From: an uncultured Candidatus Rokubacteria bacterium
GTDB lineage: Bacteria; Methylomirabilota; Methylomirabilia; Rokubacteriales; DASRDR01
Length of the DNA: 64,000 bases
Direction: 5' to 3'
Assembly: GCA_963708025.1 (NCBI GenBank)
Contig: CAVPSB010000015.1
Span: forward strand, 224,001 to 288,000
Under the pieces are notes generated by a model, which was not told the origin of the DNA, did no database searches, and was given only the letters and a program-made list of their open reading frames with translations. Shown one piece after another: positions 27,684 to 45,605 of this stretch. Within the stretch, counting starts at the first letter, position 1, and every line of letters begins with the position of its first letter. A program made the position numbers and the translations under genes.

Positions 27684-28907
27684 GTGGCGCTGGCCAGCGC
27701 GGGAGTCCTCCCCGTCACCCTCGACTCCGCCGTCAACATCGCCTTCCCGGCGATCTCCGCAGCCTTCGCGGTCCCCGTGGCCGCGATCCGGTGGATCGTC
27801 ATCGCCTACATCCTCACGGACGCCTGCCTGCTCCTGCCGGCCGGGCGATGGGCCGATCGCGTCGGCCACCGGCTGGTCTTCGGGGTCGGCCTGGCAGTCA
27901 CCGGCGCCGCCCTCCTCCTCTGCGGGCTGGCGCCGACGCTCGGCTGGCTCCTGACCGCGCGCGTGCTGCAGGGCGCCGGGGCCGCCCTCGTCTTCGCCAG
28001 CGCGCCCGCGCTGGTCACGCTCGCCAGCCCGGAGGCGGCCCGGCAGCGCGCGCTGGGCTGGTTCAACCTGGCCATCGGCACGGGTGCCGTGCTCGGGCCG
28101 CTGCTCGGCGGCGCGCTCGTCGCGACATGGGGGTGGCGCGCCGTGTACCTGGCCCGCGTGCCGCTGGCCGCCGCCGCGCTGCTGCTCGCGTGGCGCGGAC
28201 TGACCACGGTGACCGGCGCAACGGAGCCCAAGCCCCCCGCCGGGCCCGCGGCGTCGGGCGGCCTCGCCGACCGGCGGACCTTCGTCCTCGCCAACGCGAC
28301 CAACCTGGTCGCCAACGCCGCGCTCTTCTTCGTGTGGCTGCTCGTCCCGTACTACCTGGTCCAGGGCCGGGGCCTGCCGGCCGGGGTGGGCGGCGCCCTC
28401 TTCGCGGTCGGCGCCCTGGCGACGGCGGTGGGCGCGCCTGCCGGCGGCCGGTGGGCCGAGGCGTGGGGCGCGCGCTGGGTCGTGCCGCTGGCCCTCGCGA
28501 TCGAGGCCGTCGGGCTCGTTCTCACCAGCCGGCTCCACGCGGCGTCCTCGGGGGCCGAGATCGCGCTGGCGCTGGCGCTCGCCGGCGGCGGCGTGGGGCT
28601 GTTCGCGACGCCCAACATGCACTACGTGATGAGCGCGCTCCCGCCCGGCCGCCAGGGCTGGGCCGGGGGCCTGGTGGTCCTGATGCGGATGCTCGGGTTC
28701 GTGGTGGGCGCCTACCTGGCGACGGCGGCCTACGAGAGCCGCCTCGCCGTTTACGGGGCGGCGGGGCTCGGCGGGGCCGACGCCGCCGCGCTGGCATTCC
28801 GGGACGCCTTCCTCCTCGCCGGCGCCATCGCCGCCGCCGCAGCGGGGGGTCAGGCCTTTCAATCTTTCAGTTTGTCGAGGTGCTTGGCGAGACTCGGGGT
28901 TTGTTAA
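27684..28907 (+). CDS. MFS transporter (drug:H+ antiporter-like); start uncertain, C-terminus supplied by an inserted repeat
   Basis: TLDSAVNIAFPAI, GRWADRVGHR motif A, ARVLQGAGAA, LGPLLGGALV..WGWRAVY. Confidence 0.8.
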   Translation: MALASAGVLPVTLDSAVNIAFPAISAAFAVPVAAIRWIVIAYILTDACLLLPAGRWADRVGHRLVFGVGLAVTGAALLLCGLAPTLGWLLTARVLQGAGAALVFASAPALVTLASPEAARQRALGWFNLAIGTGAVLGPLLGGALVATWGWRAVYLARVPLAAAALLLAWRGLTTVTGATEPKPPAGPAASGGLADRRTFVLANATNLVANAALFFVWLLVPYYLVQGRGLPAGVGGALFAVGALATAVGAPAGGRWAEAWGARWVVPLALAIEAVGLVLTSRLHAASSGAEIALALALAGGGVGLFATPNMHYVMSALPPGRQGWAGGLVVLMRMLGFVVGAYLATAAYESRLAVYGAAGLGGADAAALAFRDAFLLAGAIAAAAAGGQAFQSFSLSRCLARLGVC

Positions 28908-28926
28908 GATTGAAAGGCCTGACCCC
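28846..28926. repeat. 81-bp inverted-repeat element with 21-bp arms (GGGGTCAG-type REP/MITE)
   Basis: GGGGTCAGGCCTTTCAATCTT ... AAGATTGAAAGGCCTGACCCC, perfect IR and AT-rich relative to flanks. Confidence 0.85.
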
Positions 28927-28941
28927 AGGAGGAGAATCCCG

Positions 28942-30354
28942 ATGGCGAACGACGAGCTGTGCTGGCTGTCCGCGACTGCCCTGGCCGGCCTCATCCGCAA
29001 GAAGAAGGTCTCGCCGGTCGAGGTGGTGGACGCCGTCCTCGACCGTCTCGCGCGCGTGAACCCGCGCCTGAACGCCTACGTCGCGATCACCGCCGACAGC
29101 GCCCGGAAAGAGGCCAGGGCCGCGGAGCGCGCGCTCACGCGGAAGGGCGCGCGGCCCGGACCGCTCCACGGCGTGCCCTTCTCGGTCAAGGATCTCGTCG
29201 CCACCCGGGGCGTGGCGACGACCTTCGGCACCCCGCTCTACAAGGACAACGTGCCGGGCGAGGACGCGCCGATGGTGGAGCGGCTGAAGGCGGCCGGCGC
29301 GATCATGCTGGGCAAGACGAACACGCCGACCTTCGGGTGGATCGGCGCGACCCACAACCTGCTCTTCGGCGTCACCCGGAACCCCTGGAACCCGGAGCGC
29401 ACGCCGGGCGGCTCGAGCGGGGGCGCCTCGGCCGCGGTGGCGGCCGGCCTGGGTCCCCTCGCCATCGGCACCGACGGCGGCGGCTCCATCCGCATCCCGG
29501 CGTCCTTCGCCGGGATCTTCGGGCACAAGCCGTCCTTCGGGCGCATTCCCGTCCATCCGCCCAGCGCCGCCTGGAGCCTCTCCCACATCGGGCCGATGAC
29601 GCGGACGGTGGCCGACGCCGCCCTGATGCTGAACGTCGCGGCGGGTCCCGACGAGCGGGACCAGCACTCGCTCCCCGCCGAGCGGGTGGACTACGTGAAG
29701 GCGCTGCGCGGAAGCCTGGCGGGGTTGCGGGTCGCCTGGAGCGACGATCTCGGATTCGCCGAGGCCCTCGACCCCGAGGTGCGGGCAGCCTGCGCGAAGG
29801 CGGCCGGTGCGTTTCGCGAGCTCGGCTGCCGGCTGGAGACGGTGCGCCCCGGCTGGCCCTCGCCCCGGGAGTGCTGGTTCGAGATCTTCGGCGGGGGCAT
29901 CGCGGTCCGGCTGGCGCCGTACCTCGACCGCAAGAGCGAGATCGACCCGGGCCTCTATCGCATCATCGAGCAGACCCTCGCCAACCCGCCCACGAAGTAC
30001 GTCCAGGCCTGGTTCGACCGGCTGGCGTGGGCGCAGCACCCGCGCGTGCTCTTCGAGAAATACGACCTCCTGCTGACGCCGACCGTCGCCTGCCCGCCGT
30101 TCCGGGTCGGCCTCGACAACCCGACGGAGATCGGCGGCCAGCCCGTCCGGCCCTACGCCTGGGTGCCGTTCACCTACCCCTTCAACATGACCGGGCAGCC
30201 GGCCGCCTCGGTGCCGGCCGGCTTCACCCGGGACGGCCTGCCGATCGGGCTCCAGATCGTCGGGCGGCGCTTCGACGACGCCGGGGTGCTCCGGGCCGCG
30301 GCAGCCTTCGAGCGCGCTCGCCCGTGGGCCGACCGCCGGCCGCCCGAGCCCTGA
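28942..30354 (+). CDS. amidase (amidase-signature family)
   Basis: GPLHGVPFSVKD, GGSSGGAS, GTDGGGSIRIPAS, GLPIGLQIVG. Confidence 0.93.
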   Translation: MANDELCWLSATALAGLIRKKKVSPVEVVDAVLDRLARVNPRLNAYVAITADSARKEARAAERALTRKGARPGPLHGVPFSVKDLVATRGVATTFGTPLYKDNVPGEDAPMVERLKAAGAIMLGKTNTPTFGWIGATHNLLFGVTRNPWNPERTPGGSSGGASAAVAAGLGPLAIGTDGGGSIRIPASFAGIFGHKPSFGRIPVHPPSAAWSLSHIGPMTRTVADAALMLNVAAGPDERDQHSLPAERVDYVKALRGSLAGLRVAWSDDLGFAEALDPEVRAACAKAAGAFRELGCRLETVRPGWPSPRECWFEIFGGGIAVRLAPYLDRKSEIDPGLYRIIEQTLANPPTKYVQAWFDRLAWAQHPRVLFEKYDLLLTPTVACPPFRVGLDNPTEIGGQPVRPYAWVPFTYPFNMTGQPAASVPAGFTRDGLPIGLQIVGRRFDDAGVLRAAAAFERARPWADRRPPEP

Positions 30355-30357
30355 GAA

Positions 30358-30546
30358 CTAGCGGGCGGGGCCGATGAGCGTCGCATCGCGGCCTCGGCGG
30401 CTCGTCCTCGGTCGTCGCCGATCCTCGGCGTACTCGGAGTACGCCTGCGGTCGGCGACTCCCTGCGTCCTAGCGCTGCTCGCTCCTCGGCCCCGCCCTCG
30501 AGAACTTGACTCGTCTACCATGACTTTGGCGCGTCAAGGAATCTAG
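30358..30546 (+). repeat. modular hairpin element (family A), copy 4, CTAG at both ends
   Basis: CTAG-CGGGCGGGGCCGATGAGCG...CGCTCCTCGGCCCCGCCC-tail-CTAG. Confidence 0.85.
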
Positions 30547-30595
30547 GGAAGTCCGTCGTGGACGGGCTCGACTCCTGACCGGGGAGGCCTGAGGC

Positions 30596-32290
30596 GTGGG
30601 CGAGACCCGCGTCGACCTGCTCCACCTCCTGGAGGACCTGCGGGACGCCTACCCCGGGGCTCTCGAGGAGACGATCCTGACCGAGGTCGTGGCCAACGCG
30701 CTCGACTCCGGCGCGACGCGGGTCGATCTCGCCACCGACCCGACGGCGGCGGCGCTCACGGTCGTCGACGACGGGGCCGGCATGAAGCGCCGGGAGCTGG
30801 CCCGCTACCACGACATCGCGGCCACCACCAAGGTGCGCGGGGAAGGGATCGGCTTCGCGGGGGTCGGGATCAAGCTCGGGCTCCTCGCCTGCGAGGAGGT
30901 GGTGACGGAGACGCGGCGGGGCAAGACCCACGTGGCCACGAGCTGGGGCCTCGCCTCGCGCCAGCGCGCCCCCTGGCGCTGGATCCCCCCGCCGGGGCTC
31001 GTCGCCGAGCACGGCACCGGCGTCCGCCTGACGCTCCGGAACCCGCTCTCGCCGCTGCTCGACGCCGGCTTCGTCGCCGGCGCGATCGAGCGGCACTTCC
31101 AGCCCCTGCTCGATTCCCTCTTCGACGAGTGCCTGGCCCGGCACTACCCGCGCGGCGTCCGCTTCGTCGTGAACGGGCAGCCGCTCGCCCGGAGCGGCGG
31201 CGCGACCGAGCGGGCGGCGCTCGCCATCCGGATGGGACGCAAGCGGAAGCCGGTGGCGGTCGGCTACCTCGTGCGCACGGGGGGGCCGCTGTCGGAGGAG
31301 CAGCGCGGGGTCGCGATCAGCACGCTGGGGAAGATCATCAAGCGCGGCTGGGACTGGCTCGGCGTCGCCCCGGCCGCGCCCGAGCTCATCCACGGCGTCA
31401 TCGAGGTGCCGGCACTCGCGGCCTGTCTCACGCTGAACAAGGTCGACTTCATCCGCGCCGGCCCCCGCGGCGCGAGCTACCTGGCCTACCGGAAGGCGAT
31501 CCAGGAGGCGGTGTCGGCCCAGCTCGCCGCCTGGGGCGACGCACCCGACCGGACCGCGGAGGCCCGGCGCCGGGCGCGGCCCGTCGAGCGGGATCTCGAG
31601 CGCGTGCTCGTGGATCTGGCCGAGGAGTTCCCGCTCCTCGCGAGCCTCGTCGAGCGGCACGCCGGCGGCCAGACCCGGCTCCCGACGGGACGGGCCGGCG
31701 AGGGGCTCGAGGCGACGGAGGTCGCGCTCGGATCGCTCCTCGTGGCCCGAGCCGAAGCGGAGGCGGCGACCCCCGGGGATCGGGGCGCGTCCGGCTCGCC
31801 CGGGGACGCGGCCGGCTCCGGGGCCGGGGCGGCGCCCGGGTCCGAGCCGGCGGCTTCGCCGGAGCGGCCGGCGGGTGCCACGCCACTGCCGGGAGGCCGG
31901 GGCCCGCGGCGTCCCGGGCGCTACGGGCTCAGCATCCAGTTCGAGAGCCGGCCGGACGAGTCCGAGCTGGGCCGGCTCGTCGAGTCCACGGTGTGGGTCA
32001 ACGAGGCCCACCCCGCCTACCGCCGCGCGGCCGCCTCCCGCTCCGAGGGGTACCACCTCGCGCTCGCCGTCGCCATGGCCCTCGCCTCGCTCGCGGTCGA
32101 GCCCGGCCAGGCCCGGCGCTTCATCACGACGTTCCTCGACGCACTGGGGCCGCGCCGTCGACCGCCCGGCCCCCGGCCGCCGCCCCCGGTCCCGCCGCGC
32201 CCGCTGAGAGCCTCCGGGGGGCCGGAAGGGCCCTCGGAAGGGCATCAAACGGGCTGTGGCACCCGCCGCCGGGACCGTGGTATCGTTTGA
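30596..32290 (+). CDS. stand-alone GHKL (Hsp90/MutL/MORC-like) ATPase; true stop possibly 32207 after a frameshift near 32138
   Basis: EVVANALD, VVDDGAGM, GIGFAGVGIK, HGTGV Bergerat-fold motifs; C-terminal VWVNEAHPAY. Confidence 0.8.
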   Translation: MGETRVDLLHLLEDLRDAYPGALEETILTEVVANALDSGATRVDLATDPTAAALTVVDDGAGMKRRELARYHDIAATTKVRGEGIGFAGVGIKLGLLACEEVVTETRRGKTHVATSWGLASRQRAPWRWIPPPGLVAEHGTGVRLTLRNPLSPLLDAGFVAGAIERHFQPLLDSLFDECLARHYPRGVRFVVNGQPLARSGGATERAALAIRMGRKRKPVAVGYLVRTGGPLSEEQRGVAISTLGKIIKRGWDWLGVAPAAPELIHGVIEVPALAACLTLNKVDFIRAGPRGASYLAYRKAIQEAVSAQLAAWGDAPDRTAEARRRARPVERDLERVLVDLAEEFPLLASLVERHAGGQTRLPTGRAGEGLEATEVALGSLLVARAEAEAATPGDRGASGSPGDAAGSGAGAAPGSEPAASPERPAGATPLPGGRGPRRPGRYGLSIQFESRPDESELGRLVESTVWVNEAHPAYRRAAASRSEGYHLALAVAMALASLAVEPGQARRFITTFLDALGPRRRPPGPRPPPPVPPRPLRASGGPEGPSEGHQTGCGTRRRDRGIV

Positions 32291-32542: not shown

Positions 32543-34947
32543 ATGCGAGGAATCCTGGCGACGTCGCTCCTGGGCTTCACGCTGACCGCGTGCGCCGCCG
32601 CGCGGGAGCCCTCCACGGCCACGCCCCCGCCTCGCGCGGAGCGGCCGGTGTACGCGGTAGGCGACCGGTGGATCCGGAGCGACGGGGTCTACGACCTGAT
32701 CCGGATCGAGGACGACCGCTACGTCTTCTCGGCGGGGCCGGACCGGGAGGTGCAGCTCACCCGCGACCTGGGTCTGGCCAAGGTGGTGCAGGGTCTACCA
32801 GCGCCTGGAGTTCACGCCGCCGGCTCCACCGCCCTGGCCGCTCGAGGTCGGCAAGGTGGAGCGGACCGCCAGTGCCGTGACGGGCTCCGCGGTCGAGCAC
32901 ACCGGACGCGGGTCAGGGGGCGCCGGGTTCCGCGGCGGACCCGTCGAGCTCACCTGGACGGTGGAGGGCTACGAGCAGCTCGCGCTGCCCGCGGGTCGGG
33001 CCGGCGCCTTCCGCGTCTACCTCGAAGTCCGCTGGCGCCGCAACCGCCTGGTGTTGCTCTCGGAGCTCCGCCTCTGGTACGCGCCCGAGTTCGGCCAAAT
33101 CGTGAAGGCGGAGAGCCGGGAGCTGAGCCCGCTGAACTTCGAGGTGGTGGCGCTGGAGCGGGAGGCGCCCGCGCCGCTGCGGGTGACGCTGGAGACGCCG
33201 GCGAACCGGGTGCGGGTGACGGACCCGCGGATCCAGGTGACGGGGCGGGTGTCGAGCGGGGCCGGGGTGCGGCGGGTGGTGGTCACGCTGAACGCCGTCG
33301 AGGTCGCGCGGCTGGAGGAGGCGCCGCCGCGGCCGGTGGTGCGGCTGAACGTGCCGGTGACGCTGCGCCGGGGCCAGAACGTGCTGCTCGTGACGGCCGA
33401 GGACACGACGGGCGAGACCCTCCAGGAGGCGCGGACGGTCTTCTACGACCCGGCGACGGAGGCGTGGGAGGCGCGCGGGCTGCTGGCCGGGCCGGGGCCG
33501 GTCCGCGCGCAGGCGCCGCCGCCGGGGGCGGGGCTGGAGATCGCGCTGGTGGAGCCGCGGGACCAGGCGCGGGTGGAGCAGGACGGGGTGGCGCTGGCGG
33601 GGCTGGTGCGGAGCGGGCAGGGGGTGAGCCGGGTCCTGGTGACGCTGAACGGGCGGGAGGTGGGGCGGCTGGAGGAGCCGGGGCGGCCGCGCTCGGTGGC
33701 GCTGAACTTCCCGCTGACCTTGCGGGAGGGGCGGAACACGATCGTGGTGACGGCGACGGACCACGAGGGGACGCACTACCAGGAGGTGCGGGCGGTCCAT
33801 TACGAGCGGGTGCTGCCGCTGACGCTGGCCATCCGGTACCCGGAGGACCGGGCGCGGCTGACGGACGAGGTGACGGTGCTGGCGGCGGTGCTGACGTCGA
33901 GCCGCGGGGTGGCGCACGTGGCGGTGGCGGTGAACGGGGCGGAGGTGCACCAGCAGACGGAGCGGGCGCCGCAGCAAGTCGCTGGCGATCGCGGTGCCGG
34001 TGACATTGCGGCCGGGGGCGAACGCGATCGTGCTGAGCGCGAGCGAGCCCGACGGGACGCGGCGGCAGGAGATCCGCACGGTGGTCTACGAGCGGGCGCG
34101 GGGGGCGGAGGCGGCGCCGCCCCCGGTGGCGGCGCCGGCGCCGCCGGACCCGGCGCGGTGGGCGGTGGTGATCGGGGCGGGGCGGTACGAGGACCCGGCG
34201 ATCCCGCGGCTGCAGTACACGGTGCCGGACGCGGAGGCGCTCCACCGGTTCCTGACGGGGCCCGGAGGGTTCAAGCCGGAGCAGGTGCTGCTGCTGACGG
34301 ACCGGACGGAGCGGAAGCCGACGCTGCGGAACCTGAAGTGGGCGCTGGGGACGTTTCTGGCGCGGTCGGCGCGGAAGGAGGACACGGTCCTGATCTTCTT
34401 CGCGGGGCACGGGGCGCCGGAGGTGGACCCGCGGGGGCTGGAGCGGGACGGGCTGGCGAAGTACCTGGTGCCGGCGGACGCGGACCTGGACGACCTGTAC
34501 GCGACGGCGCTGCCGATGGACGAGCTGCAGACGATCTTCGGGCGGCTGGAGGCGGAGCGGGTGGTGGTGTTCCTGGACGCGTGCTACAGCGGCGAGGCGG
34601 GGGGGCGGACGTTCTCGTCGAAGCGGACGCGGGCCGGGCAGCTGGACGAGCTGTTCCTGGAGCGGCTGACGCGGGCGCGGGGGCGGACGATCATCGCGGC
34701 GGCGCGGCCGACGGAGCTGTCGCTGGAGCTGCCGGAGCTGGGGCACGGGCTGTTCACGTACTACCTGCTGGAGGGGCTGAAGGGCGCGGCCGACGGGGAC
34801 GGGGACCGACTGGTGACGGTGCAGGAGCTGTACGCGTACGTGGAGCGGCAGGTCGTCCAGCGGTCGCGGGCGGTGGGGGCGAGCCAGCATCCGATCATGA
34901 AGGGGGAGATCCAGGGGCCGCTCCCTCTGGTGAAGCTCGGCCCATGA
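32543..34947 (+). CDS. lipoprotein with Ig-like repeats and C-terminal caspase (peptidase C14) domain, paralogue 1; frameshifts near 32795-32830 and 33975
   Basis: Lipobox LTAC; three beta-sandwich repeats (L+xGxNxIxV); RWAVVIG, FFAGHG, FLDACYSG His-Cys dyad, GHGLFTYYL. Confidence 0.85.
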
Positions 34948-34974
34948 CCGGCGAGAAGCGACGGAGCCGGAGTG

Positions 34975-37377
34975 ATGCGGCGAATCCTGACGTGGTCGCT
35001 CCTGGGCGTCACGCTGACCGGGTGCGCCGCCGCGCGAGAGCCGTCCACGGCCGCGCCTCCGCCGCGGGCGGAGCCGCCGGTGTACGCGGTGGGCGACCGC
35101 TGGATCCGGAGCGACGGGGTCTACGACCTGATCCGGATCGAGGACGAGCGCTACGTCTTCTCGGCGGGGCCGGACCGCGAGGTGCAGCTCACCCGCGAGC
35201 TGGGTCTGGCCAAGGTGGTGAGGGGTCACCAGCGCCTGGAGTTCACGCCGCCGGCCCAGCCGCCCTGGCCGCTCGAGGTCGGCAAGGTGGAGCAGGCCGC
35301 CAGTGCCGTGACGGGCTCCGCCGTCGAGTACAGCGGACGCGGGTAAGGATGGGTGGGGTTTGGCGGGGCGGACCGGTCGAGCTGACCTGGACGGTGGAGG
35401 GCTACGAGCAGCTCGCGCTGCCCGCGGGTCGGGCGGGCGCGTTCCGGCTCTCGCTGGAGATGCGGCACCGCTATTACCGGCAGGCCGGTTCAATCGGCGC
35501 TCCGGCTCTGGTACGCGCCCGAGGTGGGCCAGATCGTGAAGGCGGAGAGCCGGGAGCTGATCCCGCTGAACTTCGAGGTGGTGGCGCTGGAGCGGGAGGC
35601 GCCCGCGCCGCTGCGGGTGACGCTGGAGACGCCGGCGAACCGGGTGCGGGTGACGGATCCGCAGATCCAGGTGACGGGCCGGGTGTCGAGCGGGGCCGGG
35701 GTGCGGCGGGTGGTGGTCACGCTGAACGCCGTCGAGGTCGCGCGGCTGGAGGAGGCGCCGCCCCGGCCGGTGGTCCGGCTGAACGTGCCGGTGACGCTGC
35801 GCCGGGGGCAGAACGTGCTGCTCGTCACCGCCGAGGACACAACGGGCGAGACCCTCCAGGAGGCGCGGACGGTCTTCTACGACCCGGCGACGGAGGCGCG
35901 GGCGGCGCGCGGGCTGCTGGCCGGGCCGGGGCCGGTCCGCGCGCAGGCGCCGCCGCCGGGGGCGGGGCTGGAGATCGCGCTGGTGGAGCCGCGGGACCAG
36001 GCGCGGGTGGAGCAGGACGGGGTGGCGCTGGCGGGGCTGGTGCGGAGCGGGCAGGGGGTGAGCCGGGTCCTGGTGACGCTGAACGGGCGGGAGGTGGGGC
36101 GGCTGGAGGAGCCGGGGCGGCCGCGCTCGGTGGCGCTGAACTTCCCGCTGACGCTGCGGGAGGGGCGGAACACGATCGTGGTGACGGCGACCGACCACGA
36201 GGGGACGCACTACCAGGAGGTGCGGGCGGTCCACTACGAGCGGGTGCTGCCGCTGACGCTGGCCATCCGGTACCCAGAGGACCGGGCGCGGCTGACGGAC
36301 GAGGTGACGGTGCTGGCGGCGGTGCTGACGTCGAGCCGCGGGGTGGCGCACGTGGCGGTGGCGGTGAACGGGGCGGAGGTGCACCAGCAGACGGAGCGGG
36401 CGCCGCAGCGATCGCTGGCGATCGCGGTGCCGGTGACACTGCGGCCGGGGGCGAACGCGATCGTGCTGAGCGCGAGCGAGGCGGACGGGACGCGGCGGCA
36501 GGAGATCCGCACGGTGGTCTACGAGCGGGCGCGGGGGGCGGAGGCGCCGCCCCCGGTGGCGGCGCCGGCGCCGCCGGACCCGGCGCGGTGGGCGGTGGTG
36601 ATCGGGGCGGGGCGGTACGAGGACCCGGCGATCCCGCGGCTGCAGTACACGGTGCCGGACGCGGAGGCGATCCACCGGTTCCTGACGGGGCCCGGAGGGT
36701 TCAAGGCGGAGCAGGTGCTGCTGCTGACGGACCGGACGGAGCGGAAGCCGACGCTGCGGAACCTGAAGTGGGCGCTGGGGACGTTTCTGGCGCGGTCGGC
36801 GCGGAAGGAGGACACGGTCCTGATCTTCTTCGCGGGGCACGGGGCGCCGGAGGTGGACCCGCGGGGGCTGGAGCGGGACGGGCTGGCGAAGTACCTGGTG
36901 CCGGCGGACGCGGACCTGGACGATTTGTACGCGACGGCGCTGCCGATGGACGAGCTGCAGACGATCTTCGGGCGGCTGGAGGCGGAGCGGGTGGTGGTGT
37001 TGCTGGACGCGTGCTACAGCGGGGAGGCGGGGGGGCGGACGTTTTCGTCGAAGCGGACGCGGGCCTCGCAGCTGGACGATTTGTTCCTGGAGCGGCTGAC
37101 GCGGGCGCGGGGGCGGACGATCATCGCGGCGGCGCGGCCGACGGAGCTGTCGCTGGAGCTGCCGGAGCTGGGGCACGGGCTGTTCACGTACTACGTGCTG
37201 GAGGGGCTGAAGGGGGCGGCGGACGGGGACGGGGACCGGCTGGTGACGGTGCAGGAGCTGTACGCGTACGTGGAGCGGCAGGTCATCCAGCGGTCGCGGG
37301 CGGTGGGGGCGAGCCAGCATCCGATCATGAAGGGGGAGATCCAGGGGCCGCTCCCCCTGGTGAAGCTCGGCCCATGA
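34975..37377 (+). CDS. lipoprotein with Ig-like repeats and caspase domain, paralogue 2; frameshifts near 35345 and 35495
   Basis: Lipobox LTGC; near-identical tandem duplicate of 32543-34947 with FAGHG and DACYSG. Confidence 0.85.
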
Positions 37378-39222
37378 GGAGTCCGCGCCGCGCCCGCCTG
37401 CTCCGGCTGTGGGCGGTCGGTGGCGTCGCCAGCCTGCTCGTCACGGGGATCTCCGCGCTCGGCTGGCTCGAGCCCCTCCAGGTCCGCGCCCAGGATCTCC
37501 TGCTCGCCCTCCGGGGCCAGACGACCGCCGGAGGCATCGTCCTCGTCGAGATCGACGACGAGGCGTTCGCCCGGCTGGGATACCGCCAGCCGCTCCCCCG
37601 CGAGTACCTGGCGCGGCTCGTCCGCGCCCTCGGACGGAGCGGCGCCGCCGTCGTCGGCCTGGACGTCTCGCTGGCGACGCCGACCACGCCCCGCCGAGGA
37701 CGCCGCGCTCGCGGGCGCGATCCGCGAGCTGGCGCCCGACGGCGTGAGCCGCGTGGTGCTCGCCGAGACGCGCGCTCCCGAGGGCGGACCGCTTGCCGAT
37801 CCCGCGCTCCGGCGGGCGGTCGTGCGTGGCGCCGCCGAGGTGCCGTTCGATCGCGACGGCGTGATCCGCCGGGCCGCGTTCGTACTCCCGCGGGGTGCCG
37901 GGCCGCCCGTCGCCGCTTTCAGCCTGGCGGTCGTGGGTCGCCTCGGGGGGATGGACCAGGGGGCCCTCGACGCGGCGGTGCGCGAAGAGCGCGGCGCGCC
38001 GCCCCTGCCGGCGTGGCGGCGCGACGGCGCCCGCGCCGACGATCCGGCGCCGGTACCGCTCCAGGCCGGCGAGCTGGTCCGGATCAACTTCGTCGGGCCC
38101 GCGCGAAGCTTCCTGACCGTGCCCAGCGATGCCGTCGCCGCCCTCGCGGCGCCCGGGGCCGAGGTCGCCGAGGACAACCCCTTCCGCGGGCGGGTCGTGC
38201 TGGTCGGCGGCACGTTCCGGGAGAGCCGCGAGTTCTACCCGACGCCCTTCGGCCCGATGGCCGGCGTCGAGGTGCACGCCAACCTGGTCCACATGCTCGC
38301 GACCCGGAGCTTCGTCCGCCCGGCCCGCTGGGGTCTCGGCGTGGCGCTTCAGCTCGGTCTCGTCCTGCTGGCCGGCCTGGCGTTCCTGTGGCTGCGGCCC
38401 CTGGCGGGGACGCTCGTCTCGGTGGGGGCAGCCCTCGCGATCGCGGTCCCGGCCAGCTACTGGGTCTTCCACGCGCAGGGGCACTCGGTGGACTTCGTGC
38501 TCCCGGTCCTCACGACCTGCCTGATGGGGGCGGGCACCGAGTGGCTCGCCCGCCGGCGCCTGCGCCAGGCGTTCGGGCGCTACGTGAGCCCCGAGGTCCT
38601 GACGCGGGTCCTGGCCGACGCGCCGAGCCTCCGCGGCGAGCGGCGCCGGGTCACGATGCTCTGCTCGGACCTGCGCGGGTTCACCGCGCTGGCGGAGGAC
38701 CGGCCGGCCGAGGCGGTGGCCGCCCAGCTCAGCGAGTACTTCGATGCGATGACCCGCGCCATCCTCGCCCACCGGGGGATGGTCAACGACTTCGTGGGCG
38801 ACGCCATCATGGCGACCTTCGGCGCCCCGATCGCCGACCCGGACCACGCGGGGCACGCGGTGCAGAGCGCGGTGGCGATGGAGCAGGGGCTCGCCGAGCT
38901 GAACCGGCGCTGGGAGGCGGCTGGGGTGCCATGCCTCCGCATGGGGGTCGCCGTCCACACCGGGGAGGTCTTCGTGGGGAACGTGGGCGGCCCGGTTCAC
39001 CTGAAGTACGCCGTCGTGGGCGACCCGGTGAACGTGGCCGCCCGCCTGGAGAGCCTGAACAAGGATCTGGGGACCACGATCCTGGTCTCGGAGGAGACGC
39101 GGGCGGCCCTGGGCGACCGGGTGACGGTGCGCGACCGCGGCACGATCCCCGTGCGCGGGCGCACCCAGCCGCTCCGGGTCTACGAGGTGCTGGACGTAGC
39201 GCAGCAGGAAGGGAGAGCGTCG
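37374..39222 (+). CDS. CHASE2-domain class III nucleotidyl cyclase; frameshift near 37690; reads in frame into the next gene
   Basis: IVLVEIDD, PLPREYLARL, VVGLDV, DRDGVIRR, MAGVEVHAN (CHASE2), 3 TM, FGRYVSPEV, SDLRGFT, FVGDAIMA, GDPVNVAARLE. Confidence 0.9.
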
Positions 39223-40170
39223 ATGCGGGCACGCGTGGCGATCCTCGGCGCGGTGGCGTGGCTCGTCGGGTCGGGGCTGGCGTGGGCGGCGGACCCGGTG
39301 GCGGTGCTGACCGAGATCCGCCCGGGCCAGGGCGAGGTTCGCGTGAAGCTGGCCAGCGAGGCCGACTGGAAGGCCCCGCGGCCGCTCCTGGCGCTGCGCC
39401 CGGGAGACCAGGTGCGGGTCCTGGGGGACGGCCAGGCCGTCCTCGTCTTCACGGGCGGCCAGGCTACCCAGGTGGTGACCCAGGCGAACTCGCCGTTCGC
39501 CGTGCAGGCGCCCCGGCCCGCGAGCGGCGCCGAGCGCGTCCGGGGGCTGCTCGGCAGCCTGACGGAGTTCCTGCTCGGCCAGCAGAGCGAGCCGGCCTAC
39601 CGGCCGCTCACGACGCGGACCGTGCGCCAGCGGCCCGTCATAGTCTCGCCCCGGGAGACGCGGCTCCTGCCCGGCCCGGTGCGGCTCGAGTGGCAGGGCA
39701 CTGACCACCTGCGCTACCGGATCCGCGTCGTCGGCCCCCGCGGGACCGTGTGGGAGCAGGGCGATCTGCCGCGCCAGCCCTACGAGTACCCGGGCGTGGC
39801 GCCGACCCTGGACCCCGGCGTCCGCTACGTATGGGAGCTGGAGGCCCGCGGCCACCCGTCGCAGCAGGCGGCCTTCGAGCTGCTCCCGGCGGTCGAGGCC
39901 GACCGGATCCGGGCCGACCTGGCGCTGCTCCAGCCGGGCGCCCTGGCCGGCGTCCCGCGGAACACCGTCGTCGTCCTCCGCGCCGGGCACCTCTTCCAGG
40001 AGGGCCTCTACCACGAGGCCCGGCGCGAGCTGCTGGCCGGCATCGCGGCCGATCCCGACGAGCCGACGCTCCACCAGCTCCTCGGCTGGGTCTACGAGCG
40101 CACCGGGCTCCCGGACCTGGCCGCCGAGGCGTTCGCCGAGGCGCAGTTCCTCTCGACGCGCGCGCCCTGA
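39223..40170 (+). CDS. exported protein (FecR-like N-terminal beta region, DUF928-like middle, TPR-like C-terminus)
   Basis: Purine-rich RBS, signal peptide ending AWA-A; LRPGDQVRV; YPGVAPTLDPGVRYVWEL; GLYHEARREL helical end. Domain names are by resemblance. Confidence 0.65.
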   Translation: MRARVAILGAVAWLVGSGLAWAADPVAVLTEIRPGQGEVRVKLASEADWKAPRPLLALRPGDQVRVLGDGQAVLVFTGGQATQVVTQANSPFAVQAPRPASGAERVRGLLGSLTEFLLGQQSEPAYRPLTTRTVRQRPVIVSPRETRLLPGPVRLEWQGTDHLRYRIRVVGPRGTVWEQGDLPRQPYEYPGVAPTLDPGVRYVWELEARGHPSQQAAFELLPAVEADRIRADLALLQPGALAGVPRNTVVVLRAGHLFQEGLYHEARRELLAGIAADPDEPTLHQLLGWVYERTGLPDLAAEAFAEAQFLSTRAP

Positions 40171-40193
40171 GTCGCGTGAGAAAAGGGGGAGGT

Positions 40194-41654
40194 ATGAGGA
40201 CGCTTTCGCTGGGGGTCCTGACCGGGGCGCTGCTGGCCGGGATCGCCGGGCCGGTCGCCGCCCAGGAGACGAAGCCGGGCTTCATCGTGAGCTTCAGCGG
40301 GGAGCTGCGGGTCCTGGGCTTCGCGGACAACAACATCTTCGACTTCACCGACACCGGGAAAATCAACCGGGTCGTCACCCGACCGATTCCCGGCATCGGC
40401 GTGATCGACCAGTGTGAACCGCCCCCCTGTAACAAGGACAGCGATGCCTTCTATTTCCAGCGCTGGCGGCTGTTCACCACGGTCGAGTCGGCCGACCTGA
40501 AGGCGCGCGTGGTCTGGGGCGCGGAGGTCGGCGACATCACCTGGGGTGTGGGCGGCGGAGCCTCCGGAGACGAGTACGGCACCGGCACGACCAACCGGTT
40601 CGGGACGAGCCGGGGCGGGGGCCTCGGCGCCGACGGCGTCAACGTCGAGACCAAGAACCTCTACCTCCAGTTCGACATCCCGTGGGTCCCGGGGATGAAC
40701 TTGCTGCTGGGGGCTCACAACATCCTCTTCATGGACTCGCCGCTCGGGGCGTTCCTGGACGACGACGCCTGGGGCATCCAGCTCAACTGGCGGCGGGAGC
40801 CGGTCGCCGTGCAGCTCTGGACGGCGAAGATCGACGAGAACGCGCGGGCCGACGCGGACGACAACCAGTTCTACGCGGCGCGGATCTGGGTGGACGTGAC
40901 GAAGGACGTCACCGTGAGCCTCGAAGGGCTGATCGTCGATGCCCAGTGCTTCGGCCGCCGGGAGCCGGTCCCGCCGGCCACGACCGGCACCTGCTTCTCG
41001 GCCGGCTTCGGCGACAACCTCTGGATCGGCAGCACCGTCCGGGCGACCCTCGGGTCCGTCCGGCTCGACGGCTCGGTCGTCTACGGCCAGCGCCTCCAGC
41101 TGTGCCCGGATTGCAGCGACGGGGTGGCCCGGGCGCGGGGCTGGGGCGTCCAGGCGAGCGCGCGAGCGCCCGTGGGGCCGGTGAGCCTGTGGGGCCAGGC
41201 CTGGTACACGACCGGTGACGACAAACAGCTCACCGGCGGGCCGTCCTCGGTCGCGTTCATCCCGCTCGCGGGAGACTCGGACAAGCTGCCGCTCCCGATC
41301 CACCAGGCCTCGTGGTACAGCGGGCCGCTGGTGGCCGAGTGGCTCACCGGGCTCAGTACGCTGGGCGCCCCCGGTGTCGGCAGCGCCAACTACGGGGATA
41401 TCACGGGCACGTATGGCGCGGGCACGTCGGCGATCGTCAGCCTCACGCCGGCCCTGTCGACGGGCGCCGGCCTCGCCTACGTGGGCGCCACGGACGCGCC
41501 CGGAATCTTCGGGAAGCACGTCGTGGAGCTGGACGCTGCGGTCTTCTACCAGTACAGCCCGAACCTCCTCTTCACGCTGCTCGCCGGGTACCTGGTCCCC
41601 GACACCGAGGACCACGCCTGGGGCATCGGCTTCCGGACCCGGTTCCTCTTCTGA
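40194..41654 (+). CDS. outer-membrane beta-barrel (porin-like) protein
   Basis: GGGAGG RBS, signal peptide, amphipathic strands, GADGVNVETKNLYLQFDIP, terminal GFRTRFLF (BAM signal). Confidence 0.8.
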   Translation: MRTLSLGVLTGALLAGIAGPVAAQETKPGFIVSFSGELRVLGFADNNIFDFTDTGKINRVVTRPIPGIGVIDQCEPPPCNKDSDAFYFQRWRLFTTVESADLKARVVWGAEVGDITWGVGGGASGDEYGTGTTNRFGTSRGGGLGADGVNVETKNLYLQFDIPWVPGMNLLLGAHNILFMDSPLGAFLDDDAWGIQLNWRREPVAVQLWTAKIDENARADADDNQFYAARIWVDVTKDVTVSLEGLIVDAQCFGRREPVPPATTGTCFSAGFGDNLWIGSTVRATLGSVRLDGSVVYGQRLQLCPDCSDGVARARGWGVQASARAPVGPVSLWGQAWYTTGDDKQLTGGPSSVAFIPLAGDSDKLPLPIHQASWYSGPLVAEWLTGLSTLGAPGVGSANYGDITGTYGAGTSAIVSLTPALSTGAGLAYVGATDAPGIFGKHVVELDAAVFYQYSPNLLFTLLAGYLVPDTEDHAWGIGFRTRFLF

Positions 41655-41805
41655 TCTCACGGAGAACAATTCCCGGCACCGACGGGGGCCCCCTCGAGGC
41701 TAGAATCACAACGAGAACGGTGGTGCACGTGGCGATGTGCACGGACCGCCGTCTCCCGACCTGACGCCGACGCATGGGACCCTTCGACCGCCAGTCCCCC
41801 TGTGC

Positions 41806-41860
41806 GCCGAACGCATGCTTCAGCGCCTGCGAAACCGGTCGGCTGACGCAGAAGTTGGGC
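41806..41860 (-). mobile_element. integron attC-like site downstream of the RelE/ParE toxin
   Basis: Minus strand GCCCAAC-ttctgcg-TCAGCCGACCGG-tttcg-CAGGCGCTGA-agcatgc-GTTCGGC, 13 bp after the toxin stop. Confidence 0.65.
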
Positions 41861-41873
41861 CGCCGCGGCGGCA

Positions 41874-42172
41874 TCACTCGCGTCCCACCCAGTACGTCGG
41901 ATCGGACGCCGCTTGAGATTCATCACCGCAAGGATCCGGATGCCGCTCGGCTTGATCTTGTAAAGCAGTGCGTAGGGAAATCGGCGGAGGAGACGACGAC
42001 GAACGGAACCACGGAGGATCACGCCAGCTTCGGGATGGTCGTCAATGGACTGTATACAGCGGTCGACCTCCTCGAGGAAAGAGGATCCCAGCCCGGGGCT
42101 CTCGAGGTCGTAGTACTGCGCGGCCTCGGTCAGCTCTCGTTCGGCGAGCCGGTGAAACTCGGGTGGAGCCAT
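41874..42172 (-). CDS. type II toxin, RelE/ParE family; 5-bp duplication shifts the last codons
   Basis: AERELTEAAQYY...GLGSSFLEEV...RRRLLRRFPYALLY...RILAVMNLKRRP(TYWVGRE*). Confidence 0.85.
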
Positions 42173-42397
42173 TCATTTCAGCTTCGCCCGAGCGTCCCGG
42201 AGCACATCGGCGGCTGGACGGGCAGAACCTGGCGCTGAGTCCCACTCGGCATCGCGCCGATCAGCCTCCTCCGCCCAGAGGCGCTCATTCTCCGGGTCCG
42301 AGAGCGTTTCGAGACTCTCGAGCAGCTTCTTGGCCAGTCGCGCCCGCGCCTGGGGATCCAGCTTGAGGGCTTCGGCCTCGATTTCGTCGATGCTCAT
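42173..42397 (-). CDS. addiction-module antitoxin
   Basis: MSIDEIEAEALKL...RARLAKKLLESL...WAEEADRR; directly upstream of the toxin. Confidence 0.85.
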   Translation of the reverse strand: MSIDEIEAEALKLDPQARARLAKKLLESLETLSDPENERLWAEEADRRDAEWDSAPGSARPAADVLRDARAKLK

Positions 42398-42440
42398 GCT
42401 CAGCATTCTACTACCACGCGGCCAGGCAAACCTTGTCACC

Positions 42441-42542
42441 CATTACAACCCCGAACTTCCTCTTCACGCTGCTCATCGGGTACGTGGTCCCGGACCTGGA
42501 GAACCACGCCTGGGCGGCTTCCGGATGCGCTTCCTCTTCTGA
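42441..42542 (+). pseudogene. diverged duplicate of the porin gene 3' end (41550-41654)
   Basis: CCGAACxTCCTCTTCACGCTGCTC...ACCACGCCTGGG...TTCCTCTTCTGA aligns by eye. Confidence 0.85.
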
Positions 42543-42623
42543 GGGCGCACCCGCCCGGCCTTGACCGGGCCCGCGTCCTTCTCCCATGCGCGGGGTCCGA
42601 CCCCCTGCCGCCCCGCAAGGGTC

Positions 42624-42849
42624 CCCCCTTGACGCGACCCGGCGGCTCGGCCGAGGATGAAGCCCCCCGGTCCCTGTCGAACCAGCACGCCCGTCTCCAG
42701 GGGAGCCCGAATGACGTCGGCAAACGGCCCGGTCGCGGTGGAGCGGAACCTCCTCGTTCCGCTGTCGGACGGCGTCGAGCTCGCCGCCGACCTCTACCGG
42801 CCGGAGGCCGGCGGCCCCTGGCCGGCGATCCTCACCTTCATCCCGTACC
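42624..42849 (+). repeat. direct repeat of the cocE upstream region and 5' end (43605-43830)
   Basis: 226-bp near-identical copy encoding MTSANGPVAVERNLLVPLSDGVELAADLYRP...FIPY, then truncated. Confidence 0.9.
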
Positions 42850-42932
42850 TCCATGCCCACTTGCCTTGCGTGATGATTACGGCTCCAGGTATGCATCGCG
42901 GACGATCGGCCGGAGGACCTCGTTGAACTGGG

Positions 42933-43271
42933 TCACGCACTCCCCGGCCAGTCACTACCATTCGGATAGGATGACCAGTCCGTTTGCCCGAAAGCCTCCA
43001 GGAAACGCCGTGTGAACTCCCCGCGAGGAGCTTGCCGGAAGGTCACGCGCAGCACCTTGACCGAGCCCGGACGATCAACAGCCCGCACACTGAGCACGAA
43101 TTCCTCGTCCCGCGTGAAGCACAGGTCGTAGGACTGAGCCACTTCTCGATAGAGGCGGCCGTTGTCGAGACCCTTCAGCCGGAGGCTCGTCACCGAGTCG
43201 ACCTCGTGGCCGAGCCGTCGAAGGGCGACACGGAGCGACTCGGGCATGTTCTCGTCGAGCAAGACCCTCAC
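42933..43271 (-). CDS. DUF5615 PIN-like toxin (VapC45-like)
   Basis: MRVLLDENMP...GHEVDSV...FTRDEEF. Confidence 0.85.
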   Translation of the reverse strand: MRVLLDENMPESLRVALRRLGHEVDSVTSLRLKGLDNGRLYREVAQSYDLCFTRDEEFVLSVRAVDRPGSVKVLRVTFRQAPRGEFTRRFLEAFGQTDWSSYPNGSDWPGSA

Positions 43272-43483: not shown

Positions 43484-43691
43484 CCCCTCGAGGTGAGAGT
43501 CTCTGACAATCTACGTTTCGGCTCTGGCCTCGTCCAGTGACCTGACAACCATCGAAAGCGGGTCCCAAGTTGCCGCGATTGTAGCAGAGGCGGCTCGGGC
43601 AGACCCCCCTTGACGCGGCCGGGCGGCTCGGCCGAGGATGAAGCCCTCAGGTCCCTGCCGAATCAGCATGCCCGTCTCCAGGGGAGCCCGA

Positions 43692-45605
43692 ATGACGTCG
43701 GCGAACGGCCCGGTCGCGGTGGAGCGGAACCTCCTCGTTCCCCTGTCGGACGGCGTCGAGCTCGCCGCCGACCTCTACCGCCCGGACGCCGGCGGTCCCT
43801 GGCCGGCGATCCTCACCTTCATCCCGTACCACAAGGACGGGCGGGGCGGCCGCCTGGACGTCGAGGCGGTGAACCGCTACTTCGCCGCCCGCGGCTACGC
43901 GGCGCTCACCGTGGACTTCCGCGGCCTCGGCAACTCGGGCGGGGTGAACCGGCAGCCCTTCGATCCCCAGGAGGCGAAGGACGGCCACGAGGTCGTCGAG
44001 TGGGTGGCGGCCCGGCCGTGGTGCGACGGGAACGTCGGCATGTGGGGCGTCTCCTACGGCGGCATCACCGCGCTGTCGGTGGCCGCGACCCGCCCGCCGC
44101 ACCTCAAGGCGATCGTGCCGATCCACGCCTGCAGCGACATCTATCACGACTTCGTGGCGCCGGGCGGCTGCCGGGGCGGCTTCTGGAACCAGGCCGACTG
44201 GGGGCCGCGCATGGTGGCCTTCAACCTGATGCCGCCCCTCTGGCAGGACCCGGAGCGGCCGCTGGGCGCGGATCTGGGCCGAGCACCTGGAGGCGAACGG
44301 CCCGTGGCTCTTCGCCTGGTGGGAGCACCCGGACTTCGACGACTTCTGGGCCGCTCGCGTGATCCCGGTCGAGCGCATCGAGTGTCCGGCCTTCCTGATC
44401 GGCGGCTGGCGCGACCTCTACGCCGAGGCGACCGTCCGCGACTTCGGCCGGATCCCGGCGCCCCGGCGCCTGCTGATGGGCCCGTGGAAGCACGCCTTCC
44501 CCGACGTGGCGCTCGACGCGCCGGCGGCGGGGCTCCACGAGCTGGAGCGCTGGTGGGAGCGGTGGCTCCGGGGCAAGGACAACGGGGTGATGGCCGAGCC
44601 CGCGGTGACGCTGTACGTCCAGGGCGCGGAGGCCGGCTGGCGTCACGAGGCCGGCTGGCCCTCGCCGCGGGTCGCGCGCACGCCCTGGTACCTCCACGGC
44701 GACGGCGGGCTGTCGGCGACCGCCCCCGCCGCGACGACCAGCCGCTACGCCTACGACGCGACGGTCGGCCTGGCGTCGCTCGGCTGGGACCCCTGGACGA
44801 CGACGCTCGACCCGGCCCTCCCCTACGACCAGGGCGCCGACGACGCGCGCTCGCTCGCCTTCACGTCGGCGCCGCTGGCGGCGCCGCTCGAGCTGGTCGG
44901 GAGCCCCGTCGCCACGCTCGACCTGGCGGCGTCCGCGAGCCCGCTCCGGGTGGTGGCCAAGCTCGGCGACGTCGCGCCGAACGGCCGCTCGACCCTCGTC
45001 GCGCTCGGCTGGCTCGACCTGCGGCCTGCCCCCCGGCGAGCGCGGCCAGGTCGCGGTGCCCCTCCGGGCCACCGCCTACCGGGTCGCCGCCGGCCACCGC
45101 TTGCGGCTCAGCCTGGCCTGCGCCGACTTCCCCCGCATCTGGCCGACCGCGGCACCGGCCGAGCTGAGCGTCTACCACGGCGCCTCGCGCGTCGAGCTCC
45201 CGGTGGCGGCGGCCGGCCCCTCGCTTGCCGGCGCCGGTGTGGGGCCCGCTCCAGCCGGAGTCGCTGAAGGGGCCCGCCGACCTCGGCGGCACCCAGCACT
45301 GGGAGACGCGGCGGGACCTGGGCGCCGACGTCGTGACCCTCGACGCCACCAAGGAAGAGCGCCAGCAGCTCGACGGCTTCACGCGGCTCCACAGCCGCCA
45401 CCACTACCGCGCCAGCGTCAGCGCCCGCCGCCCCGACGCGGCCCGGATGCAGTCGACCACCGAGGTGCGGATCGAGCGCCCGGTGGGGCAGACCGAGCTC
45501 ACCGTCACGACACTCACCACCACGCACCAGGTCGCCGTCACCGCCACGATCACGGTCGACGGCAGCCCGTTCTGGACCCGAACCTGGAATCGTGCGCTTC
45601 CCTGA
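43692..45605 (+). CDS. CocE/NonD family serine hydrolase; several frameshifts
   Basis: DGVELAADLYRP, VDFRGLGNSGG, WCDGNVGMWGVSYGG, GGWRD, MGPWKH, PepX_C-like FTSAPLAAPLELVGSP. Confidence 0.88.

Follow-up and report, generated by a model that had tools for sequence, protein, structure and literature searches.

CHASE2 is a widespread sensor domain for which the literature gives no ligand or input mechanism, and for MtxA, an exported protein encoded next to a CHASE2 receptor, it gives a structure and no function. The mtx cluster of magnetotactic bacteria carries mtxA followed by a CHASE2 adenylate-cyclase gene and is a named cluster of unsolved function (PMC4439547); MtxA has 313 amino acids (aa) and a signal peptide, the structure of its C-terminal domain has been deposited (PDB 4Z29; PMC4439547), and crystals were obtained only after trypsin had taken off residues 1–141. 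The only CHASE2 cyclases studied functionally are CyaD1, CyaD2, and CyaK of Sinorhizobium meliloti, whose signal is reported to be peptidic or proteinaceous and protease-sensitive and whose pathway needs NsrA and includes Clr (PMC7529298, PMC5498481). The BiofilmReg operon of Burkholderia encodes a response regulator, a LysM/FecR periplasmic protein, and a CHASE2 histidine kinase (PMC5192318), DdvA of Myxococcus xanthus is an anti-sigma factor with a periplasmic TPR-CHAT domain of caspase fold (PMC11506125), and Trichodesmium has a metacaspase-CHASE2 fusion protein (PMC3501461, PMC2853523). Here we compare with these systems a locus at 32.5–41.7 kb of a 64,000-nucleotide (nt) stretch, hereafter the window (G000:C15:224001-288000; G+C ~75%), of a soil-type Rokubacteria genome (Methylomirabilota), in which the gene for a CHASE2 receptor with a nucleotide cyclase runs in frame into that for an MtxA-like exported protein (the partner) and follows two caspase-like genes (Table 1). 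Our interpretation, which is tentative and to which we give a little less than an even chance, is that the locus is the Rokubacteria version of an extracytoplasmic signaling module, with a core of CHASE2 cyclase and MtxA-like partner, accessory exported proteases, and a proteolytic control that we infer.

The likeness to the mtx cluster lies in the partner and in the gene beside it. Like MtxA, the partner is an exported protein (~313–315 aa for the two) with a signal peptide, a beta-rich N-terminal part, a flexible linker, an immunoglobulin (Ig)-like domain, and tetratricopeptide repeat (TPR)-like helices, the full order being signal or transmembrane segment, beta-rich N-domain, helix, linker, Ig-like domain, and four TPR-like helices; and, like mtxA, its gene lies beside that for a CHASE2 cyclase. 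In an AlphaFold2 (AF2) model of the partner (mean predicted local distance difference test [pLDDT] score 85.8), the only low-confidence stretch is the linker at residues 121–140 (pLDDT 57–71), in which L129 is invariant and R132 nearly invariant. When the model was searched with Foldseek, the top-ranked match, and thus the best structural match, was the C-terminal domain of MtxA (4Z29_A; E-value 1.3e-7, template-modeling [TM] score 0.69 on the target, root-mean-square deviation [rmsd] 4.1 over 186 columns, 16% identity), the next matches having E-values of at least 1.7e-4 and rmsd of ~15; as modeled, the partner has the MtxA-type Ig-like plus TPR-like fold. Unlike the mtx cluster, the locus has the gene order reversed and the two genes fused in frame, has C14 caspase genes with YmcC-like and Ig-like domains attached, and belongs to another phylum with no magnetosome link here. 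Nor was a sequence-level match found: the partner matched neither Pfam MtxA_C (PF22121) nor, even at E ≤ 10, the 4Z29 chain. By modeled fold, architecture, and genomic partner, and not by sequence, the pair is a remote form of the mtx pair that had already been named. An earlier reading of this DNA from its letters (the sequence-only reading) had described the partner as a DUF928/TPR-like exported protein. The TPR and the export signal are there, and Pfam gives TPR matches only; DUF928 (PF06051) was not matched at E ≤ 1 by the partner or by anything else in the genome, whereas three homologues that are 61–63% identical to the partner scored 25.8, 29.2, and 26.5 bits (cut-off 26), two of the three above the cut-off, such that the partner would be a distant DUF928 relative at best. 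A language-model look-alike search, used as a lead only, lists DUF928/TPR clusters and, at 0.96, an MtxA_C/MtxA_IG-like cluster. Stand-alone homologues of the partner are ~315 aa long and come from metagenome-assembled genomes of Candidatus Rokubacteria, Rokuibacteriota, and Methylomirabilota.

The receptor gene is recognized by Pfam as CHASE2 (PF05226; 58 and 72.2 bits on its two frame pieces, cut-off 26.3) and Guanylate_cyc (PF00211; 73.7 bits, cut-off 21.9). Hydrophobic segments follow the CHASE2 domain in P0270, a database homologue, and the protein is predicted to be an inner-membrane receptor with CHASE2 facing outward and a class III nucleotide cyclase in the cytoplasm. From the cyclase to the ATG at 39223 the frame is open and free of stops, as the sequence-only reading had stated, and this junction is not peculiar to the window: a search of longer proteins returned three open reading frames (ORFs; P0270, P0271, and P0272, 930–962 aa) that hold CHASE2, cyclase, and partner in one frame, with partner parts 96%, 83%, and 61% identical to that of the window and with linkers that differ, and one of the 40 assessable loci fetched from related genomes (L062) is fused as well, the other 39 having a stop between the genes. 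An assembly error at the junction had been considered, on the grounds that nine of nine relatives had a stop and that near-length homologues were all ~315 aa; the fused ORFs of 930–962 aa overturned that explanation. Residues 621–639 of P0270 form a hydrophobic segment that corresponds to the signal peptide of stand-alone partners and would fit a fifth membrane pass; the fusion appears topologically sound, because the former signal peptide comes after the cytoplasmic cyclase and would lead the MtxA-like part back into the periplasm. A purine-rich stretch stands just upstream of the internal start at 39223, and the fused ORF could yield two products, through that start or through a signal-peptidase cut after A-W-A. 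The repeated fusion is the strongest evidence here for receptor and partner acting as one unit. The same genome holds a second pair of CHASE2-cyclase and MtxA-like genes (G000:C32, ~28486–31258), whose partner is 45–47% identical, in which a stop lies between the two genes, and which has no caspase or porin within ~10 kb.

Across the phylum, the partner family is found in 106 of 251 genomes, a tally that takes in the unpublished genome G244. Gene neighborhoods were compared in 42 loci, namely 40 of 146 partner matches (the best by score with a long contig, ~10 kb on each side), L021, and the C32 copy; a search with a 12-row partner alignment gave 46 loci, mostly in genomes already counted, and a related-loci search with the single partner protein found none. 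In 41 of the 42 loci the gene immediately upstream of the partner encodes a cyclase, and 40 have a CHASE2 match; together with the natural fusions, this bears out the proposed tie between partner and CHASE2 cyclase. In 12 loci the pair has close C14 genes (65–74% domain identity) at its side, in two arrangements, with one to three copies upstream of CHASE2 in seven loci and a single copy downstream of the partner in five (L073 has an additional, distant C14 gene at 37% identity). None of the 10 loci with a partner less than 48% identical to that of the window has a caspase. In a tree of the caspase N-domains, made by a quick method and with the window entered as two partial rows, the CHASE2-adjacent caspases form one clade (support 99) and the window copies stand elsewhere, grouping weakly (82) with the caspase of L033. 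The caspases are accessory, in one to three copies, to a core of CHASE2 cyclase and partner, and that they occupy two positions and stem from at least two lineages speaks for selection on the linkage. These data bear directly on the explanation that the caspases are unrelated neighbors, that is, envelope proteases with targets of their own that came to lie beside the pair through shared ancestry, which we regard as unlikely: it would account for the many pairs that lack a caspase, for members of the caspase family without a CHASE2 gene within ~10 kb (L020, L023–L030), and for their variable presence within one genus (in L063 and not in L062, L064, or L065), but it fits poorly with the two positions relative to the pair, with the separate lineages, and with genes that overlap or abut tightly, as at the ATGA in the window. 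Caspase homologues P0273, P0274, and P0275 lie on contigs of 12682, 22021, and 13970 nt, as do partner homologues P0003 and P0004 and the fused P0272, and the two sets probably share contigs.

Each caspase-like protein has, in order, a lipobox signal, a YmcC-like N-domain, Ig-like domains (Pfam Big_7 and Glucodextran_B matches), and a C14 domain (PF00656 Peptidase_C14; 65.7 bits for copy 1 and 57.6 bits for copy 2, cut-off 21.4). The active site is intact as had been claimed, with FAGHG and DACYSG in both copies; all 20 related C14 domains keep [AS]GHG and DACY[ST]G. Among solved proteins, metacaspases come closest in sequence (4F6O, E-value 2.1e-9), and in an alignment to the yeast metacaspase the AGHG and DACYSG found here pair with SGHG and DSCHSG. 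Metacaspases cut after Arg or Lys. A lipobox, [LVI][ASTVI][GAS]C, closes the signal peptide of bacterial lipoproteins; LTAC and LTGC after a hydrophobic N-terminus follow this pattern, and both copies are predicted lipoproteins. A hydrophobic signal-like N-terminus is present in 29 of 29 caspase homologues examined, which upholds the placing of the protease outside the cytoplasm, on the CHASE2 side. Lipidation as a conserved feature did not hold up: the lipobox Cys is found in ~5 of the 29, among them the two copies of G002, the closest family member, and the signals of the others end in A-x-A, of the signal-peptidase-I type, followed by Q. The "twin" caspases are likewise twins in a narrower sense than had been thought, the two lipobox-bearing copies being a tandem duplicate of 97% identity and not two diverged paralogues such as those of relatives. 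Full-length relatives are ~780–830 aa long and are annotated as "caspase family protein" of Rokubacteria, NC10, or Methylomirabilota; 1084 matches at E ≤ 1e-30 were found among the candidates scored, the best being 75% identical. No family is assigned to the first ~180 residues. Frame breaks divide the N-domain of the window copies, and an orthologue (L088) was folded in its place: the model (pLDDT 92.2) is a closed beta structure that resembles the Escherichia coli lipoprotein YmcC (2IN5; VIA Z 9.8, rmsd 3.7, 148 of 188 residues), with 4FVS as runner-up at Z 7.8 and a best Foldseek E-value of only 1.8e-3. On this model, the caspase N-domain has a YmcC-like lipoprotein fold. We know of no ligand for the YmcC fold.

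The other described systems share parts of this arrangement. Like the S. meliloti cyclases, the receptor would couple CHASE2 to nucleotide cyclization (there, cAMP synthesis gated by an extracytoplasmic protein signal), and there genes for an outer-membrane protein and for a periplasmic protein with a FecR domain lie close by; unlike at this locus, no caspase or MtxA-like partner is reported for S. meliloti, and the porin found here is not conserved with the module. As in BiofilmReg, a small exported accessory protein invariably goes with the CHASE2 receptor, but there the output is a kinase, the accessory is a LysM/FecR protein, and there is no protease, whereas here a cyclase goes with an MtxA-like protein. 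DdvA also places a caspase-fold domain in the periplasm for transmembrane signaling; that domain, however, is of CHAT type, forms one protein with the transducer, lacks a complete active site, and acts on an extracytoplasmic function (ECF) sigma factor, whereas the domain here is C14 and the output a cyclic nucleotide. The Trichodesmium fusion likewise brings a C14 caspase homologue and CHASE2 into one system, but with the caspase as cytoplasmic output of the receptor instead of as separate exported proteins on the sensor side. The sequence-only reading knew of no characterized system with this architecture. The MtxA plus CHASE2 cyclase pair had already been named (mtx, PMC4439547), and what stands of the claim is the combination with caspases: a full-text literature search, with most subscription journals outside it, returned no paper on exported C14 caspases together with a CHASE2 cyclase and an MtxA/DUF928-like partner.

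In the mechanism that we propose for the module, the CHASE2 receptor, with its sensor outside and its cyclase in the cytoplasm, would work with the ~315-aa exported MtxA-like protein, which in the window belongs to the same open frame and would be carried back into the periplasm by the fifth membrane pass. The MtxA-like protein would sit on or near the CHASE2 domain and set the activity of the cyclase. The one to three exported metacaspase-like C14 proteases, here two near-identical predicted lipoproteins with a YmcC-like N-domain and Ig-like spacers, would cut after Arg or Lys, either in the flexible, Arg-bearing inter-domain linker of the partner or in a protein signal that they trim, and either cut would change cyclase output. 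We infer both the proteolytic control and the contact between partner and CHASE2. The linker is favored as the target because it is of low confidence in the model and has the conserved Leu and Arg, because metacaspases cut at Arg/Lys, and because the trypsin cut that removed residues 1–141 of MtxA falls at the same domain boundary. A bolder form of this mechanism, namely that CHASE2 receptors are protease-gated, with a metacaspase cut in the MtxA-like linker releasing or exposing a CHASE2 ligand and thereby switching cyclic-nucleotide synthesis, has in our estimate only a slim chance of being right; in the fused form, the cut would fall in the receptor's own tethered extracellular tail. The protein-type signal of S. 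meliloti keeps open a different role for the proteases, in which they would make the signal by digesting proteins of foreign or envelope origin, and the peptides would be presented to CHASE2 by the MtxA-like TPR/Ig protein. TPR and Ig-like domains are typical binders of peptides and proteins, and the YmcC-like and Ig-like domains of the caspases could hold substrates. The signal of the S. meliloti CHASE2 cyclase is protease-sensitive and proteinaceous (PMC7529298, PMC13001267); set against the fact that no substrate is known and that most pairs have no neighboring caspase, this leaves signal-making doubtful, about on a level with protease gating.

Several points weigh against the module as proposed, beginning with the missing sequence matches to MtxA and DUF928 given above. 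No caspase stands beside 29–30 of the 42 pairs, the C32 pair included, and because of this the pair must be able to work without caspases. The 42 loci come from related genomes chosen by score and span of contig and are not independent. The protease is probably specific for Arg/Lys, by analogy, with kinship to metacaspases as the basis. Finally, deletion of mtxA in Magnetospirillum reportedly gave no phenotype (PMC4439547, PMC5088516).

The sequence-only reading had also made an outer-membrane barrel part of the system. The 486-aa protein encoded downstream of the partner is porin-like by an NCBIfam match below threshold (NF033939, DESULF_POR1; 45.6 bits, E-value 3.9e-12, residues 85–350, cut-off 250), its signal peptide and terminal Phe can be read from the sequence, and Pfam gave no match to it. 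Membership in the system is not supported: no porin-like gene is found near the pair in any of the 42 related loci, and in relatives that have both genes they lie on different contigs in seven of seven cases. Of 20 genomes in the taxonomic family to which the window belongs, 17 carry members of the porin-like family, often in several copies, compared with none of the 20 genomes searched outside it. We conclude from the gene neighborhoods that the porin gene is a bystander and no part of the module. What recurs of the gene set in other genomes is caspase, CHASE2 cyclase, and partner (12 of 42 loci), without the barrel. The mechanism put forward with the earlier gene list had a ligand at the lipoprotein N-domain activating the protease, with the barrel admitting the signal or exporting a component. 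The closed, YmcC-like beta structure of the N-domain model and the need for the outer-membrane protein NsrA upstream of a CHASE2 cyclase in S. meliloti (PMC7529298) speak for it, whereas the separate genomic location of the barrel in relatives, the lipobox in so few of the homologues, and a YmcC fold without a known ligand speak against it, and we consider it very improbable. Taken as a whole, the earlier interpretation was borne out in the linkage of caspase, CHASE2, and partner and was not supported as to the barrel and a conserved lipoprotein state. Elsewhere in the genome (G000:C32:243051-246571, minus strand), two tandem porin-like paralogues are 53–57% identical to the protein of the locus, and the match to each comes in two pieces, a sign that frames may be broken there as well.

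The first three genes of the locus are not single open frames, as the sequence-only reading had flagged, and the question arises of whether the breaks are errors of assembly or decay. Coding frames were traced by third-position GC (GC3) and a seven-state GC-phase model, which shows unbroken plus-strand coding over 32.5–41.7 kb with frame steps at 32792, 33977, 37370, 37689, and 40194. Copy 1 of the caspase reads in three frames, with one extra base at 32796 and one at 33975–33977 (frame boundaries at 32792 and 33977 in the GC3 model). Copy 2 has an in-frame TAA at 35344–35346 and +2/+1 indels, at about 35343–35365 and about 35497, within a diverged patch, 35340–35500, that codes best in another frame (GC3 of 35360–35495 highest in frame 2, 0.89 versus 0.75), and the CHASE2 gene has one indel at 37689–37692, which brings the total to approximately six one-base indels. 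Most likely, the frame breaks are single-base insertion errors of the assembly. We read them as such because five ordinary genes of the window are split in the same way, with the Pfam domain running on in the next frame (Table 1), because the defect is genome-wide and biased toward +1, because related contigs lack the bases, and because an independent homologue is intact. Genome-wide, 907 of 3486 direct same-strand frame switches (26%) are not followed by a stop within 60 nt in the old frame, compared with 9 of 95 (9.5%) in ~170 kb of relatives' loci, the count being an ad hoc heuristic and the control one that may itself hold errors. Counted over four large contigs, +1 steps outnumber +2 steps by 235 to 63, a bias that is the signature of single inserted bases. 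In related metagenome contigs, which are 90–99% alike to the locus and so are relatives rather than the source organism, the base at 32796 is missing at a depth of 9.41 of 9.41 in X1, 5.66 of 5.66 in X3, and 0 of 6.36 in X6; that at 33975 is missing at 27 of 27 in X1 and 7.55 of 9.95 in X6; and in the CHASE2 gene a base is missing at 12.1 of 39.5 (37688) and 15 of 45.8 (37692) in X1 and at 2 of 31.4 (37688) in X3. P0270 (931 aa, 94% identity) is an intact, independent ORF whose residues 1–105 correspond to 37374–37688 and residues 107–931 to 37693–40167.

The alternative is decay of the locus in this strain, with real indels and with caspases and cyclase reduced to pseudogenes. Break density is approximately five times the genome average (about six indels in 5 kb, compared with roughly one candidate per 9 kb), which counts in favor of decay and which we put down to poor consensus in the 97% tandem repeat; in addition, none of the sequencing runs screened covers half or more of the stretch, such that the contigs compared come from relatives. 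Against decay, the changes are of one base only and GC3 stays at 0.95–1.0, the same defect is found in the five ordinary genes, the steps lean to +1, relatives lack exactly those bases, and P0270 is intact. We consider decay improbable, more so than the alternative roles for the caspases discussed above. On the preferred reading, insertion errors, the assembly seems to carry systematic single-base insertions, and gene calls from it need care. In one of the related loci (L091; G018:C7, ~7914–8777), the CHASE2 gene has an internal stop 1506 nt before the partner, and this long-read-style assembly may share the error problem.

Table 1. Coordinates of the genes of the locus and of split ordinary genes elsewhere in the window
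Feature	Position	Strand	Remarks and evidence
Caspase-like gene, copy 1	32543..34947	+	~800 aa if read through; translation, copy alignment, GC3 model, Pfam
Caspase-like gene, copy 2	34975..37377	+	97% identical to copy 1; intact downstream of 35524
CHASE2 receptor with class III nucleotide cyclase	37374..39222	+	Pfam CHASE2 and Guanylate_cyc; no stop at end
MtxA-like exported partner	39223..40170	+	315 aa from internal ATG; in frame with cyclase; AF2, Foldseek
Porin-like outer-membrane protein	40194..41654	+	486 aa; sub-threshold NCBIfam match; signal peptide, C-terminal Phe
Split histidine kinase	frame step 3910		Pfam continuity
Split luciferase-like oxidoreductase	frame step 18360		Pfam continuity
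Split E2 acyltransferase	frame step 24682		Pfam continuity
Split peptidase S15	frame step 44273		Pfam continuity
Split solute-binding protein	frame steps 46050, 46666		Pfam continuity

The source genome has 8.17 Mb in 49 contigs (completeness 99.67, contamination 8.18). Within the locus, the five co-oriented, tightly packed genes of the sequence-only reading were all found as plus-strand coding regions, and translation reproduced each of its spacings: a 27-nt gap between the stop of caspase copy 1 (34947) and the ATG of copy 2 (34975), the overlap of the copy 2 stop with the CHASE2 start in the ATGA at 37374–37377, the in-frame junction, and a 23-nt gap between the partner stop (40170) and the porin ATG (40194). 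As an observation, that reading was thus right about genes, spacings, and motifs, with the reservation that the first three genes are broken by frameshifts. The gene directly upstream of the caspases (30593–32140, plus strand) has a HATPase_c_3 domain; neither it nor the flanking amidase and S15 peptidase genes are conserved near related loci, and a major facilitator superfamily (MFS) transporter found 8–10 kb off in five related loci is taken as plain synteny. An Rfam scan of the window gave no match. Downstream of the porin gene is a stretch of lower GC (0.64–0.67) with small minus-strand ORFs (41657–42439 and 42933–43271), which by their look we take to resemble toxin-antitoxin pairs, an 88-aa "addiction module"-like ORF standing upstream of a RelE/ParE-like ORF; another small minus-strand ORF of the 41657–43271 region begins MRVLLDENMPESL. 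The peptidase S15 gene opens with ~64 residues (43638–43830, plus strand) that are near-exactly repeated ~1 kb upstream (42657–42926, plus strand), and from the sequence it looks as if a small-ORF cassette has been inserted with duplication of the 5' end of the S15 gene.

To the described CHASE2 systems the window adds receptor and partner fused in one frame, a caspase of lipoprotein form that was recently duplicated in tandem, and a barrel that is clearly a bystander. The natural fusion of cyclase and MtxA-like protein into one frame provides direct genetic evidence for a joint working unit, and the recurrence of exported metacaspase-like proteases with intact active sites turns the arrangement into a concrete biochemical hypothesis for which a few recombinant proteins suffice. 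If the proposal is true, caspase-fold proteolysis has a signaling role outside the bacterial cytoplasm; if CHASE2 receptors were protease-gated, bacteria would have their own equivalent of protease-activated receptors, and an input mechanism for CHASE2 would be known for the first time. More broadly, the recurring gene set could show what CHASE2 sensors detect.

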